A program made the position numbers and the translations under genes. Below the pieces are notes generated by a model. That model made no database searches. It had not been told where the DNA came from and saw nothing but the letters and a program-made list of their open reading frames with translations. From the NCBI GenBank assembly GCA_958422985.1, contig CATZPY010000001.1, positions 780-64,779 of the forward strand: 64,000 nt of DNA, written 5' to 3'. This DNA comes from an uncultured Clostridium sp. (GTDB taxonomy: Bacteria; Bacillota; Clostridia; TANB77; CAG-508). Below are positions 22,655-64,000 of the stretch, piece by piece; position 1 is the first letter of the stretch; the number at the start of each line of letters is the position of its first letter.

Positions 22655-22704
22655 TTTAATAAATTTAGAATATACTTACTATAAGAATGATAGAGGTGAT
22701 AGAG

Positions 22705-22992
22705 ATGATTTATGAAGCATATGTAAAAGAAAGTAAAATTATTGATAAAACAGATGAAGAAAAAAGCTTAGACTTAGTAAAATCTTTAATTAAAACAAAA
22801 TACGAACTAGATTCAGCTTGCAAAAATTTTGAATTTGCAGAGGGAGAACTTGTGGATTATTATTCATACCAAATAAAAGCAAATCAAGCTAAAATTAATT
22901 ATTTATTAAAGAAAATAAAAAGGAGAGGTTTAATAATAGATAATATTCAGGAAAAGAGTATTAAAAATTTAACCAAGCAAGAAGCAATATAA
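22705..22992 (+). CDS. YaaL-like DUF2508 protein
   Basis: Small helical protein directly upstream of bofA, matching Bacillus yaaL-bofA synteny. ATG at 22705 after GAGGTGA. Confidence 0.6.
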   Translation: MIYEAYVKESKIIDKTDEEKSLDLVKSLIKTKYELDSACKNFEFAEGELVDYYSYQIKANQAKINYLLKKIKRRGLIIDNIQEKSIKNLTKQEAI

Positions 22993-23040
22993 TGTATATT
23001 TGTCCATATATAATCATAAATATTATTAGGAGTGATGTAT

Positions 23041-23304
23041 ATGGACTATAATAATATGCTGGTTTTATCTGCAACAATATGTTTTGCTTTTCTATTTGGA
23101 AGAATATTTGTAAGGCCAATTAAATTTATATTTAAAATAGTTTTAAATTCGATTTTAGGATGTTTGTTAATAACATTAATAAATTATATAGGATTAAATT
23201 TTAGTTTTCATATAGGAATCAATATTTGGACTTCAGCTTTAGTTGGAATTTTAGGAATACCTGGCGCAGTTTTGCTTATAATATTAAAAATATTTATAAT
23301 TTAG
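23041..23304 (+). CDS. bofA: Pro-sigma-K processing inhibitor BofA
   Basis: About 87 aa with two TM segments and the C-terminal GILGIPGAVLLIILK motif typical of BofA. Confidence 0.75.
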   Translation: MDYNNMLVLSATICFAFLFGRIFVRPIKFIFKIVLNSILGCLLITLINYIGLNFSFHIGINIWTSALVGILGIPGAVLLIILKIFII

Positions 23305-35007: not shown

Positions 35008-35724
35008 ATGAACAAGAAAACAAAAGAAATTATGCAAAGGGAACTTTTACAGGCAAAAGTGGACTCAGCAATTTATGAGGAACTGAAAGCTTCATGGCGA
35101 GAAGAGCAAAACAACTTTTTAGAATCTTTAAAAGATTGGAGAAGACCACAAGATAACCTAGAAACAAGTTCAGATATCATGGAACTTGTAGAGGGCTTAC
35201 CTATCCAACAATATTATACAGAAGTACCATTTAGAGATGAAAACAAAGATGATTATATCTCAACAGTCGCTAGTAGCGGTTGTGCTATTCTTATAGCAAA
35301 GTTCATTGAAAGATACTTTGCATTGGAAAAAGATATGCTAGTATCAGAACTAGCTAGAATGGCAGTGAAATATGGTTACCGAGGTTATAAGAAGGAAGCT
35401 GATGGTACTTGGAGAAAGATGGGTATGATGCACATCTGGTTTGACAAGTTCGTTCCAAGATTTTACAACTTAAAAAGTGCTAGACTTGAAAGTATTAAAG
35501 ATGTTGAAAAAGCACTTTTGGCAGGAGAATTACCAGTATTGCTGGTTAAGAATTCTGTATATAAAAATGACCCAGAGAATGCTGATTCACATTTTATTGT
35601 GGTGTTAGGATTTACCAAAGAAGGATATCAGTTGTATGATCCAGAAAAGGTAGAGGTTATCACCTATGAATTTGAAAAACTGCATCAGGCAATAAGAACT
35701 GGTTGGATAATTTCAAAAGAGTAA
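35008..35724 (+). CDS. Orphan cytoplasmic C39-like (papain-fold) cysteine peptidase
   Basis: Candidate Q/C/H/D residues: IQQYY, SSGCAILIAKF, DSHFIVVLGF, LYDP. No signal peptide or TM. Codon usage differs visibly from the neighbouring genes. Confidence 0.65.
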   Translation: MNKKTKEIMQRELLQAKVDSAIYEELKASWREEQNNFLESLKDWRRPQDNLETSSDIMELVEGLPIQQYYTEVPFRDENKDDYISTVASSGCAILIAKFIERYFALEKDMLVSELARMAVKYGYRGYKKEADGTWRKMGMMHIWFDKFVPRFYNLKSARLESIKDVEKALLAGELPVLLVKNSVYKNDPENADSHFIVVLGFTKEGYQLYDPEKVEVITYEFEKLHQAIRTGWIISKE

Positions 35725-35726
35725 GT

Positions 35727-35772
35727 AAAAAACAACTAGACTAGGAGAAATCTCCTAGTCTAGTTGTTTTGG
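35727..35772. terminator. Bidirectional terminator shared by the peptidase and the peptide genes
   Basis: About 18-bp perfect stem aacaactagactaggaga/tctcctagtctagttgtt, flanked by an A-run and a T-run. Confidence 0.85.
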
Positions 35773-35785
35773 GTTTATGTTTTAA

Positions 35786-35908
35786 CTAACAACATCCGTT
35801 TCTTCTATTTCCACCACAACAACAGAATATTAGTATTAATAATATTATCCAAGTGCAACAATCATCACCAAAACCAAAACCACATCCACAACCTCTATTT
35901 TCTGGCAT
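35786..35908 (-). CDS. Cys-rich tiny TM peptide P1 (40 aa); not in the ORF track
   Basis: My own translation: MPENRGCGCGFGFGDDCCTWIILLILIFCCCGGNRRNGCC. RBS AAAGGAGGG lies 6 nt before the ATG. Stop codon is TAG. Confidence 0.7.
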   Translation of the reverse strand: MPENRGCGCGFGFGDDCCTWIILLILIFCCCGGNRRNGCC

Positions 35909-35982
35909 ATAAATCCCTCCTTTCATATTCTTTTATTAAGAATATAAGTATGACTGCATAAAATCTTAATTACAGTATACAA

Positions 35983-36105
35983 TTAGCAACCACATGGGTC
36001 ACAAGGTGCGTCACATCCACATCCAGAGTTTCTACTATTTCCACATCCACAGAAAAGTATTAAGAAAAGAATGATGAACCATAATAAGTCATTATTACAA
36101 CACAT
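35983..36105 (-). CDS. Cys-rich tiny TM peptide P2 (40 aa); not in the ORF track
   Basis: My own translation: MCCNNDLLWFIILFLILFCGCGNSRNSGCGCDAPCDPCGC. RBS AAGGGAGG lies 8 nt before the ATG. Stop codon is TAA. Confidence 0.7.
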   Translation of the reverse strand: MCCNNDLLWFIILFLILFCGCGNSRNSGCGCDAPCDPCGC

Positions 36106-36250
36106 AAATATAACCTCCCTTTTCTTTTTTAAACCTAAGTTCTTTTTCTTAGTATGATATATCTTATTCGAAATATATCTATTGTGTTACTAAAAAAATA
36201 ATGATATAATTTTTGGCAATGGTAGTGTAATAGAAAAGGAGAAAATATAT

Positions 36251-53998: not shown

Positions 53999-54060
53999 AT
54001 GTATTAGGAACAAAATAAGTATAGTATACATATAATATTATATAAGAGAGGTAATGCTAT

Positions 54061-55206
54061 ATGAGTACAATATATTTTGATCATGCAGCGACTACTGCAG
54101 TTGCACCAGAAGTAAAAAAAGAAATGGATCCATATTTTTGTGAAAACTATGGGAATGCATCTTCATTATATGAACTAGGTTATAAATCTAAAGAGGCAAT
54201 AAATATAGCAAGAGGGAATGTAGCAAGAGTAATAAAAGCTAATCCAAAAGAAATATATTTTACCTCTTGTGGAAGTGAAAGTGATAATTTAGCAATAAAA
54301 GGAGTAGCAAGAGCTAATAGAAGAAGAGGAAACCACATAATTACAAGTAAAATAGAACATCCAGCAGTTTTAAATACCTGTAGGCAATTAGAAAGAGAAG
54401 GTTTTATAGTAACATATTTAAATGTTGATAGAAATGGAAAAATAGACATAAATGAACTAAAAAGAAGTATTAATAATAGAACTATTTTAGTGTCTATAAT
54501 GTTTGCTAATAATGAAGTTGGAACTATAGAACCTATAAAAGAAATTGCAAATATTGTTCATAATTACAATGCGATATTTCATACAGATGCAGTTCAAGCA
54601 ATTGGAAATGTAGAAATAGATGTTAAAGATATGGGGATAGATTTATTGTCAATGTCTGCTCATAAGTTCTACGGGCCAAAAGGGGTAGGTGCTTTATATG
54701 TAAAAGACGGTATAAATTTTGTACCTTTGCAAAATGGTGGACATCAAGAAAATGATAAAAGAGCAGGAACTGAAAATGTAGCAGGTATTGTTGGGCTTGG
54801 TAAAGCTATAGAAATTGCTAATTACCAGATGCAAGATAGAAACCAAAAAATACTAGAATTAAGAAATTATTTTATAGATGAAATAAAAAACAAAATTCCA
54901 TATATAAAAATAAATGGTGATTTAGAAAATAGATTACCAGGAAATATAAATATTTCATTTTTATATACTAAAGGAAAAGATATTGTAAAATTACTTGCAA
55001 AATATGATATATGTACTTCGAGTGGTTCTGCTTGTAGTAGTGGACTTCCACAGCCATCACATGTATTGCTTGCAATGGGGCTAAATGAAGACATTGCAAA
55101 TAGTGCAGTAAGAATAACTTTAGGCAAAGAAAATACAAAAGAGGAAATAGATTATACAATAAGTATATTAAAAAGAATTGTAGAAAATCTTAGAACAGAA
55201 GTATAA
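54061..55206 (+). CDS. Cysteine desulfurase (NifS/IscS-like, class V aminotransferase)
   Basis: SAHKFYGPKG (PLP lysine) and SSGSACSS (catalytic Cys loop). Confidence 0.92.
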   Translation: MSTIYFDHAATTAVAPEVKKEMDPYFCENYGNASSLYELGYKSKEAINIARGNVARVIKANPKEIYFTSCGSESDNLAIKGVARANRRRGNHIITSKIEHPAVLNTCRQLEREGFIVTYLNVDRNGKIDINELKRSINNRTILVSIMFANNEVGTIEPIKEIANIVHNYNAIFHTDAVQAIGNVEIDVKDMGIDLLSMSAHKFYGPKGVGALYVKDGINFVPLQNGGHQENDKRAGTENVAGIVGLGKAIEIANYQMQDRNQKILELRNYFIDEIKNKIPYIKINGDLENRLPGNINISFLYTKGKDIVKLLAKYDICTSSGSACSSGLPQPSHVLLAMGLNEDIANSAVRITLGKENTKEEIDYTISILKRIVENLRTEV

Positions 55207-56909: not shown

Positions 56910-58604
56910 ATGGCAAAAAGAATGAAAGAAAAAAACGAAAGAAATAAAGGAAAAATAGTATTAAATATAATTATTGCATTAATATTTCTTGCGATAGTAG
57001 GTGGAGTATTTTACTTTTCTCCCAATTATATAAAAGAAGATTATGAAGGAAAAACTAAAATATTAATAAACAATAATAATGTTACATTAAAAATGAAGAA
57101 TGATGTATATATAGATGAAAACAATAATGTATTTATGTCTATATCAGATATAAAAAATTATTTTGACAAATATATAGAGTATGACAAAGAAGATGGCGAT
57201 ATTGTAACAACATCAGAAATAAATATAGCTAAATTAAGTACAGAGAATAAAACAATTACAATAAATGGAAAAGAGGAAGAACTTAATTCATCTGCTATAA
57301 AAAAAGGAGAAACAATTTATTTACCATTTTCAGAAATAAGTCAAAAGGTTTATGATGTAAATTTAGAATACATAAAAGACACAAACACAATTATTATAGA
57401 TTCATTAGATAGAAAGCAAGAAACAGCAACTGTGAATAAAAATACAAAAATTAAATATAAACCACAAATTTTTTCTAGAACTTTGGATAAAATTAAAGAA
57501 AATGAAAAAGTAGTATTTATAGAAGAAAAAGAAGATTGGGCCAAAGTTAGAACTATAGATGGAATAATAGGATATATAAAAAAAGATAAACTAAATGATT
57601 TAGAAGTTGTACGAGAAGAAAAAAATTACATAAATAAAGTAGATGGAAAAATTAACTTAGTTTGGGATTACTATTCAGAATATGCTAATGCTCCAAATAG
57701 AAGAGACGAAAAAATGGCTGGAGTAAATGTTGTATCACCAGCATTCTTTTCTATTATGAAAGGAAGTAATGGAGAAATAAATGACAATGCAAAAGAAGAA
57801 GGAAAAGAATATATAAAATGGGCACATAATAATAAATATCAAATTTGGGCAATGTTTTCTAACAATTCATTAAAAGATACTACTTCACAAATATTAAATG
57901 ATTACGAAAAAAGAGAGAACATGATAGAAAACTTAATAGTTTTAGTAGAAAAATATGATATAGACGGTGTAAATGTAGACTTCGAAAATATGAATGAATC
58001 AGATAAAGATGTATATTCAAAATTTTTAATAGAATTAGCTCCAAGATTAAAGAAAATGGGGAAAACACTATCTGTAGATGTAACAGCTCCAGATGGCTCT
58101 GCAACATGGTCTTTATGTTTTGACAGAGATGTAATTGCAGATGTTTCAGATTATGTAATATTTATGGCTTATGACCAATATGGTACAGGTTCTGGTAAAG
58201 CAGGTACAACAGCAGGATATAATTGGGTGGAAGCAAATATTAAGAAATTTTTAGGACAAGAAGATGTACCACCAGAAAAAATAGTACTAGGAATACCATT
58301 ATATATGAGAACATGGGAAGAAAAACGAGATGGTACATTTGTTCCAAATGTAGTAAACATGAACGATTTATTTGATGTTCTTCCAGAAAATCAAGTAGCA
58401 ACATGGGATGAAGATTTAAAACAATACTATGTAGAATACGAGAAAAAAGGTAAAAAATATAAAATGTGGATAGAAAATGAAAAATCCATAGGAGAAAAAA
58501 TAAATTTAGCTAAAAAATATAATTTAGCTGGAATAGCTTTTTGGGAAAAAGATAGAGAGCCAAATAATGAATTTTGGACATTTGTAAAAGAAGAGCTAAA
58601 TTAG
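56910..58604 (+). CDS. GH18 glycosyl hydrolase with TM anchor, stalk and SH3b-like domains (YaaH/YdhD-like)
   Basis: The DGVNVDFE catalytic motif (DxxDxDxE), plus an SH3b-like segment WAKVRTIDGIIGYIKKDKL. Confidence 0.85.
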   Translation: MAKRMKEKNERNKGKIVLNIIIALIFLAIVGGVFYFSPNYIKEDYEGKTKILINNNNVTLKMKNDVYIDENNNVFMSISDIKNYFDKYIEYDKEDGDIVTTSEINIAKLSTENKTITINGKEEELNSSAIKKGETIYLPFSEISQKVYDVNLEYIKDTNTIIIDSLDRKQETATVNKNTKIKYKPQIFSRTLDKIKENEKVVFIEEKEDWAKVRTIDGIIGYIKKDKLNDLEVVREEKNYINKVDGKINLVWDYYSEYANAPNRRDEKMAGVNVVSPAFFSIMKGSNGEINDNAKEEGKEYIKWAHNNKYQIWAMFSNNSLKDTTSQILNDYEKRENMIENLIVLVEKYDIDGVNVDFENMNESDKDVYSKFLIELAPRLKKMGKTLSVDVTAPDGSATWSLCFDRDVIADVSDYVIFMAYDQYGTGSGKAGTTAGYNWVEANIKKFLGQEDVPPEKIVLGIPLYMRTWEEKRDGTFVPNVVNMNDLFDVLPENQVATWDEDLKQYYVEYEKKGKKYKMWIENEKSIGEKINLAKKYNLAGIAFWEKDREPNNEFWTFVKEELN

Positions 58605-62395: not shown

Positions 62396-63001
62396 GTGAT
62401 ACAAACAATTTGTGATTCATTAGCACGTAAGATAACAGAATCTGTTAATGGATATGATGAAAGTAGAATAGAAGAAATTAGCTTTGGTCTACAATTACTA
62501 ATTGGTGAAATACCTAAGTTTTTTATTACATTTATTTTAGCATGGCTACTTAATATAATTGATTTAACCATAATTTCTTTTATGATAATTTTACCATACA
62601 GAATGTTTTCTGGAGGATTTCATTTAAATACACATTTAGGATGTATTATAGCAACAAACACAATGTATATTGGAAGTGCATATTTAGCTAAAATATTATA
62701 TTTTAGTGATAGTGTTAAATTTATTATGATAGCTATTACTTTTATATTTAGTTTTGCAATGATTTATAAATATGCACCTGCAGATACAGAAAATGTTCCA
62801 GTATTACAAAAGAAAGAGAGAAGAAAACGAAAGATATGGTCATTTATAATTGCAGGTACTGAGCTTGCAATTGCAGTAATTACACCGTATAGAGTAATTT
62901 CTAATATGATAATTATAGGAATTTTAATTCAAACATTAACAATAACTAAATTAGCATATAGAATTACAAAAAATAAGTATGGTTATGAAGTGTATGGATA
63001 G
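62396..63001 (+). CDS. agrB: AgrB-family accessory gene regulator (AgrD-processing membrane peptidase)
   Basis: 201 aa and polytopic. MFSGGFHLNTHLGC contains the conserved His...Cys. It is followed directly by an agrD-like ORF. Confidence 0.85.
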   Translation: MIQTICDSLARKITESVNGYDESRIEEISFGLQLLIGEIPKFFITFILAWLLNIIDLTIISFMIILPYRMFSGGFHLNTHLGCIIATNTMYIGSAYLAKILYFSDSVKFIMIAITFIFSFAMIYKYAPADTENVPVLQKKERRKRKIWSFIIAGTELAIAVITPYRVISNMIIIGILIQTLTITKLAYRITKNKYGYEVYG

Positions 63002-63049
63002 TAACCGAGGACTTAGCCTCGTACTATATAAAGAAAATAAAGGGGGAAG

Positions 63050-63175
63050 ATGGAAATGTTAAAAATGTTAGCAAAATTAGCAGAAAAGTATGCAAAATCA
63101 TCTAACACAGCATGTTTTGTTTTAGGAATATTACATCAACCAAAAATGCCTGCTAATATGATAAGAAAAGACTAA
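63050..63175 (+). CDS. agrD: AgrD-like autoinducing-peptide precursor (41 aa); not in the ORF track
   Basis: My own translation: MEMLKMLAKLAEKYAKSSNTACFVLGILHQPKMPANMIRKD. It has an amphipathic N-terminus, a single Cys and an HQPxxP tail. RBS AGGGGGAAG. Confidence 0.75.
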   Translation: MEMLKMLAKLAEKYAKSSNTACFVLGILHQPKMPANMIRKD

Positions 63176-63210
63176 AAACAATCAACATCCAAATTAAACA
63201 ACAAAAAAAT

Positions 63211-63240
63211 AAAAAATAAAGTATTATTACTTTATTTTTT
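63211..63240. terminator. AT-only bidirectional terminator-like hairpin
   Basis: aaaataaagta/tactttatttt flanked by A and T runs, between agrD and the convergent kinase. Confidence 0.45.
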
Positions 63241-63247
63241 ATTTGTT

Positions 63248-64000
63248 TTAAATTTTTAGTAAACTTGGTTTTGGTAAGTATATTTCTAATTGTTGTTTAA
63301 ATAATTCATCGTCTTTACTTGTAAACATTGCAAGATTATCATGTTTGTTTAATATTTTATTTACCTTCCAGAGTCCAAGTCCTGTATTATTTGGTTTTGT
63401 GGAATATGATTTTTCAAAAATTTTAAATGTATCTATATCTTTTTCATTATATGTATTTTCTACAATTACAAGTTGTCTATTTCTCCTGTAATCCATTAAA
63501 AAGCGTACATTTATATATTTTTTATTACATTCTTGTGCAGCTTCTATGCTATTATCTAATAATATTCCTAATATTCTAGTAAATTCGTAGGTATCTATAT
63601 GAAGAGAATTTAAATCTATAAAAACTCCAAGTTCAAATTGAATATTGTTTAAATTTGCTTTATTATATTTATCAGCTAAAATTGCATATATAGATGGATT
63701 ATTAATAATTTCTGGGTTAATAGCAGATAAATTATTAAGATTTTTACATTCATTAAATAATGACTTATAATATTTTGATAAACCTTCCATATCATTGGCA
63801 GTTATATATCCGCCCAATACCATTCATAATATTGTGAAAATCATGCTTGAATGCACGAATATTATCATACATTATTTTTAAGGTATTATTATATAGCGTA
63901 AGATTTTTTATATCTCTATTTGCAACTTCTAACTGTTTTGTTTTTATAATATTAAATATGCTAACAAAGAAATAAGCCAATAAACACATAATACTTAGTA
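63248..64000 (-). pseudogene. AgrC-like (HPK10, GHKL) sensor histidine kinase, split over two frames; N-terminus outside the window
   Basis: The H-box RAFKHDFHNIM is in the ORF 63792-63989, which stays open to the window edge. The ATPase domain (NTGLGLWKV) is in the ORF 63248-63823. The two frames overlap by about 30 nt. Confidence 0.7.

Follow-up and report, generated by a model that had tools for sequence, protein, structure and literature searches.

A conserved operon of two cysteine-rich micro-proteins in uncultured gut Clostridia, its predicted sigma-K-type promoter and a candidate role in the spore envelope

Two very short cysteine-rich reading frames are located beside mutL in an uncultured Clostridium sp., and they raise the question of whether they are genes, when they would be expressed, and what proteins of this size could do. 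The window analysed here is the whole stretch of 64,000 nucleotides that contains them. An earlier note, made from the sequence alone, had described two minus-strand genes of 40 codons with nine cysteines each, preceded by a near-consensus ribosome-binding site 6-8 nt before each ATG, and had offered several candidate functions. Here we describe the locus, its conservation in related Clostridia, its promoter, and the role that we consider best suited to these observations.

Layout of the peptide genes

Reading of the minus strand between 35500 and 36500, together with the ORF listing, confirmed both frames, named P2 and P1 in the order of their transcription, and strong Shine-Dalgarno sequences were present at the predicted distances. 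The features of the locus are the following:

36160..36191, minus strand: predicted sigma-K-type promoter of the P2-P1 operon, with the -35 element AGTAACAC at 36191-36184, a 15-nt spacer, and the -10 element AATAAGATA at 36168-36160
36114..36121, minus strand: Shine-Dalgarno sequence of P2, AAGGGAGG, 8 nt 5′ of the P2 ATG, read from the sequence
35983..36105, minus strand: P2 gene, 40 codons, product of 40 aa with 9 Cys, MCCNNDLLWFIILFLILFCGCGNSRNSGCGCDAPCDPCGC, from ORF reading
35909..35982, minus strand: P2-P1 intergenic spacer, 74 nt, without a promoter of its own according to the sigma-K PWM
35915..35923, minus strand: Shine-Dalgarno sequence of P1, AAAGGAGGG, 6 nt 5′ of the P1 ATG, read from the sequence
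35786..35908, minus strand: P1 gene, 40 codons, product of 40 aa with 9 Cys, MPENRGCGCGFGFGDDCCTWIILLILIFCCCGGNRRNGCC, from ORF reading
35729..35770, both strands: bidirectional intrinsic terminator hairpin with a 19-bp stem, followed on the minus strand by a T-run
35008..35724, plus strand: ORF of 238 aa, convergent with the peptide operon, with weak similarity to Peptidase_C39_2 (E 1.5e-4, under the Pfam cut-off)

The listed version of P1 has 46 aa and begins at an ATG that lies within the Shine-Dalgarno sequence; MPENR is the start that is conserved. The 5-nt core of the Shine-Dalgarno sequence was found 5′ of P2 in all of the 62 species that possess it, and 5′ of P1 in ninety-nine out of 115 species. 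The antisense ORF at 35764-35961, which the earlier note regarded as spurious, is present in the window with 65 aa and a TTG start. No relatives of conserved length were found for its product, its counterpart in a sister species differs in length, and the ORF is a by-product of the low-complexity coding strand.

P2 possesses one hydrophobic helix (residues 5-19) followed by a Cys-rich C-terminal tail; the single hydrophobic helix of P1 (residues 16-31) lies between two flanks rich in Cys and Gly. AF2 models of the window peptides, with a low to modest confidence (pLDDT about 60), gave a single helix of 15-16 residues for each, with disordered tails. This agrees with the single hydrophobic segment per peptide described before, and both helices are short for a bilayer.

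A P2-type ORF is located 31-87 nt upstream of the P1-type ORF, on the same strand, in 62 of the 115 species. The spacer between them has an internal sigma-K PWM score at background (median 4.75 bits, 4.5 bits in the window), and an internal promoter between P2 and P1 is therefore unsupported. Since the two genes share a strand, both carry a strong Shine-Dalgarno sequence, no promoter signal lies between them and a terminator follows P1, we read P2-P1 as a bicistronic operon. The terminator hairpin starts 15 nt past the P1 stop and serves the operon as well as the convergent ORF at 35008-35724; a hairpin with a T-run was detected 3′ of P1 in at least 65 of 112 loci.

Five further species (L028, L037, L068, L080, and L114) encode a P2 of only 21 aa, which ends directly past the hydrophobic core (MRNCCNSEILWFIILFLLLFR, followed by the stop), and the P1 partner of these species has a longer GGNGFGGGCGGCC tail. 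The 21-aa form is either a tail-less functional version of P2 or a decaying gene.

The operon is divergent from mutL-miaA in seventy-nine out of the 110 loci with enough upstream sequence, with a median distance of 355 bp and a MutL identity of 64-100 %, and groES-groEL is often located on the opposite side of the cassette. The position between groEL and mutL given in the earlier note thus holds on the mutL side, where the peptide genes adjoin mutL and the arrangement is conserved. However, on the other side of the window locus the 238-aa ORF separates groEL from the peptide genes.

This ORF bears on the possibility, listed in the earlier note as a modified peptide, that P1 and P2 are precursors of RiPPs or bacteriocins, with for example thioether- or thiazole-containing products made from their Cys-rich parts. 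Cys-rich peptides of ~40 aa in tandem occur at some RiPP loci, and the weakly Peptidase_C39_2-like ORF adjoins the genes in the window's clade. Nevertheless, the ORF was found only in close relatives of the window and its Pfam score is below the threshold, and it was rejected as a processing partner on these grounds. The neighbours of the cassette are mutL-miaA, groESL or variable genes, with no conserved gene for a maturase, a transporter or immunity among them. The most conserved part of the peptides is the hydrophobic helix, which does not correspond to an arrangement of leader and core, and NCBIfam yielded no match to SCIFF or other models of Cys-rich RiPP precursors. We consider a RiPP precursor highly improbable.

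Conservation and family relationships

The search for P1 in other genomes used one genome per species and a back-translated MPENRxCGCG motif, and at least 119 genomes were matched. Among the matches listed, an intact P1-type ORF of 37-47 codons with the same build was present in 116 out of 119 genomes, corresponding to at least 116 species and far more than expected by chance; the remaining three were chance matches in unrelated phyla. All genuine matches listed are MAGs of uncultured gut or rumen Clostridia, including Clostridium sp. CAG:492 and Candidatus Scatovivens, and the carriers of the cassette include two closed chromosomes of 1.57 and 1.70 Mb (OZ007016.1, OZ006978.1). CAG-492 is a genus in the uncultured, reduced-genome order TANB77 (PMC11680825).

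Codon alignments gave a dN/dS of 0.09 for P1 (115 species) and 0.13 for P2 (62 species), at a dS of about 1.3, which is saturated. The invariant Cys, Leu, Ile, and Phe columns contain mixed synonymous codons across species, and the P2 core LWFIILFLLLFC is invariant despite synonymous changes. The low ratios and the mixed codons in invariant columns indicate that selection acts on the protein. P1 and P2 are real coding genes under strong purifying selection, and conservation in related Clostridia, a point raised in the earlier note, holds for the frames as well as for the invariant Cys columns. Conservation peaks in the hydrophobic core, and the number and spacing of the tail Cys vary freely between species, with 7-12 Cys per peptide in this lineage (median of 10 in P1 and 9 in P2).

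The exact sequences of P1 and P2 are absent from a collection of 15 billion proteins, in which P1 has 33 clusters of relatives and P2 has 7 close ones, none of them named. In contigs of sister species (L001-L005, 6207-6329) the P2 ortholog is annotated, and an intact P1 ortholog located 80 nt downstream is uncalled. Gene calling often misses genes of the P1 and P2 type, and the two genes were rightly described as unannotated.

Comparison of the P1 and P2 profiles with hhalign gave a probability of 96.5 % over the helix and its edges, and the hybrid proteins P0084 and P0140 combine the N- and C-terminus of the P1 type with a core of the P2 type. On the basis of both results P1 and P2 are distant paralogs, as had been claimed for them. 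P2 is a member of an older and wider family and not a local duplicate. The P2 profile matched 436 proteins at E<=1, including ~40-aa proteins of Petroclostridium, Pseudobacteroides, and other Clostridia with the near-invariant core (D/S)(E/T)ILWFIILFLLLF, which can also be written as (D/E)ILWFIILFLLLF; an alternative core type is DDC-WIIILILLI-CCCC. The Petroclostridium locus harbours three tandem members, with both core types. Outside the lineage of the window the flanks are rich in Gly, Tyr, and Phe (GGFLGGIF..., ...GGYGYG) and contain only 0-3 Cys. The P1 profile, searched against 1.84 billion representatives, retrieved 82 proteins (cluster representatives), which grade into Cys-poor forms. 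P1, P2, and wider relatives matched no family in Pfam or NCBIfam; by their profile matches, the two peptides belong to a wider, uncurated superfamily of ~40-aa proteins in Clostridia.

Single proteins with two tandem units were also found, namely P0200 (78 aa), P0236 (73 aa), and P0227, in which a P1-type flank, a helix, and a Cys tail are repeated. This suggests that P1-type units work in pairs.

The earlier note had compared the peptides with the YjcZ or tiny_TM_bacill proteins. As regards the build, the resemblance stands. Similar to the window peptides, members of the YjcZ family of Bacilli have fewer than 50 aa and one hydrophobic helix, with a flank rich in Gly and aromatic residues in front of it, and a genome often encodes several paralogs. 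The YjcZ proteins are linked to sporulation, as is predicted for P1 and P2. P1 and P2 show the YjcZ-type build with 37-47 aa, a single helix of 15-16 residues in the AF2 models and Gly-rich flanks, and their relatives outside the lineage carry flanks of the GGYGYG type. However, membership is not supported, since P1, P2, and 12 wider relatives gave no match to TIGR01732 (tiny_TM_bacill) in NCBIfam or to PF09680 (YjcZ_2) in Pfam even at E<=10. Test sequences written in the YjcZ style, used as positive control, reached 45-53 bits (1e-12 to 1e-14) against cut-offs of about 21. The present superfamily differs from YjcZ in its conserved core, in its occurrence in Clostridia instead of Bacilli, and, in this lineage, in its 7-12 Cys. 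Literature searches on YjcZ, CD1063.1, cysteine-rich small spore proteins, and sporulation proteins of small size brought up no paper in which this family is described.

The cysteine content could also point to thiol-rich buffers of metals or redox state, which would be anchored in the membrane and, similar to metallothioneins, bind Cu, Zn or Cd or buffer oxidants, with or without a connection to sporulation. About 25 % of the residues are Cys, arranged in CxC, CC, and CCCC clusters. ArsR-family HTH_5 regulators adjoin the family member in two of the six relative contexts outside TANB77 (L129, 4536-5781; L132, 4001-6926); genes for Csp and DsbD are also present in one of these two contexts, and a gene for a heavy-metal P-type ATPase in the other. 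In the protein P0181 a P1-type peptide is fused by read-through to a CsoR-like repressor. Nevertheless, the hydrophobic core is the conserved part and not the tail Cys, whose number and spacing are free to vary, and relatives with the same core and promoter hold only 0-2 Cys. No metal genes were found in the other four outside contexts, a CsoR-like gene is nearby in none of the 115 species loci, and Pfam and NCBIfam gave no metallothionein match. Moreover, the predicted promoter is of the sigma-K type and not of a metal-regulated sigma-A type. A link to metal regulators as a feature of the family was rejected, because ArsR occurs in only two of the six outside contexts and the P0181 fusion has no counterpart in the 115 loci. 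The metallothionein-like reading of the P2 tail, put forward in the earlier note, is not supported: CDAPCDPCGC is specific to the window's clade, the tail is variable, and relatives outside have Gly or Tyr in place of Cys. A metal or redox buffer is accordingly regarded by us as quite unlikely.

Promoter and sporulation context

A conserved module, TGTAACAC-N14/15-(C/A)ATAnTATATA-nCATAC, precedes the cassette in 109 of the 115 species, at a distance of ~80 nt from its first ATG, and the same module is present in front of the Petroclostridium family genes. In its short form the operon promoter reads GTAACA-N15-(C/A)ATAnTAT. Mapped sigma-K promoters of C. difficile, such as those of cotA, cotE, CD1067, and feoA, are mostly GTAACA-N15/16-(C/A)ATAnTAT (Table S6, PMC7438776), and C. 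difficile sigma-E promoters have GTnATA at -35. The cassette promoter also agrees with the pattern of the sigma-K regulon, that is a -35 element AC/GTAACA, a spacer of 15-17 nt, and a -10 element CATAnnnTA.

With a sigma-K PWM made from 25 mapped promoters of C. difficile, a distant species and not the host itself, the cassettes reached a median of 14.1 bits, compared with 16.2 bits for true sigma-K promoters and 4.4 bits for controls, and 64 out of 110 cassettes scored above the 99th percentile of the controls. PWMs made likewise for the other sporulation sigma factors gave medians of 4.8 bits for sigma-E, with none of the 110 cassettes above the control 99th percentile, and 5.7 bits for sigma-F/G, with one of the 110 above it. 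Both assignments were rejected, since both models remain at background. The site in the window itself has 11.1 bits, which is below the family median and between the control 95th and 99th percentiles. A sigma-K-type promoter with 14.9-19.7 bits was detected before five out of six distant family members (Petroclostridium and four other contexts). By these scores, the putative cassette promoter matches mapped C. difficile sigma-K promoters and not those of sigma-E or sigma-F/G. The P2-P1 operon would thus be expected to depend on sigma-K in vivo and, given this promoter type, to be active in the mother cell at a late stage of endospore formation. The full 44-nt module, scanned over 0.9 Mb of related DNA, occurs at the cassette only and pointed to no partner genes or co-regulated genes.

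The genome context includes further sporulation genes. The window encodes BofA at 23032-23304 on the plus strand (PF07441, E 8e-22), preceded by a DUF2508/YaaL-like ORF at 22687-22992. Because BofA regulates the processing of pro-sigma-K, its gene would mark endospore formation in this reduced-genome organism. A gene for an S55 peptidase of the SpoIVB type adjoins a family member in a related locus (L139). Among the functions listed in the earlier note, a spore-associated one is therefore favoured by the sigma-K-type promoter and the BofA gene.

The best sigma-K-like site of the whole window is located elsewhere, at 54006-54037 on the plus strand (21.1 bits, AGGAACAA-15-CATATAATA), 24 nt before the ORF at 54061-55206, whose product is a cysteine-desulfurase-type aminotransferase of class V (PF00266, E 3e-90). 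This gene may be expressed late in sporulation. At 12.5 bits or more, the window scan gave 11 further sites, which are at noise level. The window also encodes a protein of 564 aa (56910-58604, plus strand) with Cu_amine_oxidN1, SH3_3, and GH18 domains; enzymes of the spore coat and cortex can contain GH18 domains, an example being the chitinase part of C. difficile CotE. An agr-like quorum-sensing locus is present at 62396-63823, with AgrB at 62396-63001 on the plus strand and a fragment of a GHKL sensor kinase at 63248-63823 on the minus strand, and the gap at 63001-63248 may contain a small gene for an AgrD-type peptide.

Late expression in the mother cell would also suit a membrane-active peptide, proposed in the earlier note as a toxin. 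Such holin-like or type I toxin-like peptides would permeabilise the mother-cell membrane for the release of the spore. P1 and P2 are small, single-helix, and very hydrophobic, and the predicted timing fits a programmed lysis of the mother cell. Type I toxins are usually patchy and multi-copy. P1 and P2, however, occur in more than 100 species as single copies in a syntenic position, with strong purifying selection (dN/dS of 0.09-0.13), and they lack the charged C-terminus typical of holins. An Rfam search of the locus returned only noise, on the terminator hairpin, and matched none of the known families of antitoxin RNA; the antisense ORF lacks conservation. Low-complexity tails of Cys or of Gly and Tyr are likewise not a feature of known toxins. 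The claim of a membrane-active toxin is thus unsupported, and a lytic or toxic function seems to us very unlikely.

Proposed role in the spore envelope

For the P2-P1 operon we favour, with somewhat better than even confidence, a sigma-K-dependent, late mother-cell operon that encodes two tiny spore-envelope peptides with cross-linkable Cys tails. According to this proposal, the operon would be transcribed from the sigma-K-type promoter in the mother cell during late endospore formation, and each product of ~40 residues would consist of a short, very hydrophobic helix between unstructured tails with a high content of Cys, Gly, and Asn. Through its helix the peptide would be inserted either into the outer forespore membrane, which faces the mother cell, or into a hydrophobic layer of the coat. 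The Cys-rich tails would form cross-links, as disulfides or metal thiolates, with one another and with proteins of the coat or exosporium, and the paralogs P1 and P2 would probably act together. We infer membrane insertion, location, and a cross-linking, structural function from the build of the peptides and from current knowledge of coat proteins under sigma-K control. The role of P1 and P2 would most likely be structural, in the spore envelope. In C. difficile, sigma-K-controlled proteins of unknown function in the spore proteome have been regarded as probable coat proteins (PMC3789822). Cys and Tyr both serve cross-linking in spore coats; the tails of the present family are Cys-rich in this lineage and Gly/Tyr-rich elsewhere.

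Several known systems resemble the proposed one in part. The Cys-rich, sigma-K-dependent proteins of the coat and exosporium, such as CdeC and CdeM of C. difficile and CotY, CotZ, and ExsY of Bacillus, share with P1 and P2 the richness in Cys and the presumed cross-linking through Cys, and they are late mother-cell proteins with sigma-K-type promoters, as predicted for P1 and P2. CD1067, which is probably cdeC, has a sigma-K promoter of the GTAACA type. However, these proteins are soluble, have about 150-400 aa, and possess no hydrophobic helix, in contrast to peptides of 40 aa that consist mostly of a membrane-type helix, and no similarity in sequence was apparent. The role of the cysteine-rich exosporium proteins has been described (PMC6101409).

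SpoVM and CmpA, which participate in coat assembly in B. subtilis, are similar to P1 and P2 as very small mother-cell proteins. SpoVM is located on the outer forespore membrane, where it serves as a tether for the coat (reviewed in PMC10730256), and a function of this kind is proposed here. Nevertheless, SpoVM has an amphipathic surface helix of 26 aa, is under sigma-E control, and contains no Cys, whereas the helix of P1 and P2 is hydrophobic throughout, their tails are rich in Cys, and their predicted promoter is of the sigma-K type.

A more far-reaching form of this proposal takes in the whole superfamily. The family may comprise sigma-K-dependent spore-envelope micro-proteins throughout the Clostridia, in which Gly/Tyr flanks were replaced by Cys flanks in the gut lineage that contains TANB77. 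In this lineage P2 and P1 would then assemble into a redox-sensitive, heteromeric tether that links the coat to the outer forespore membrane and is locked by disulfides when the spore leaves the anoxic gut. We regard this extended form as rather unlikely in its entirety. If true, the never-cultured carriers are spore formers, which bears on their transmission and cultivation. The switch from Gly/Tyr-rich to Cys-rich flanks around a near-invariant core would represent a natural experiment on the cross-linking of the spore envelope.

The locus adds a conserved, unnamed family of micro-proteins whose members are annotated as "hypothetical protein" at best, and provides it with a testable regulatory assignment, namely to sigma-K and the late mother cell. 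CAG-492, of the order TANB77, represents a clade for which a link to the response to immunotherapy has been described (PMC11680825). BofA, SpoIVB, and the conserved sigma-K-type operon represent evidence, at the level of sequence, that uncultured gut Clostridia with reduced genomes keep sporulation genes. Therefore, methods based on spore selection could help to bring these bacteria into culture and to understand their spread between hosts.
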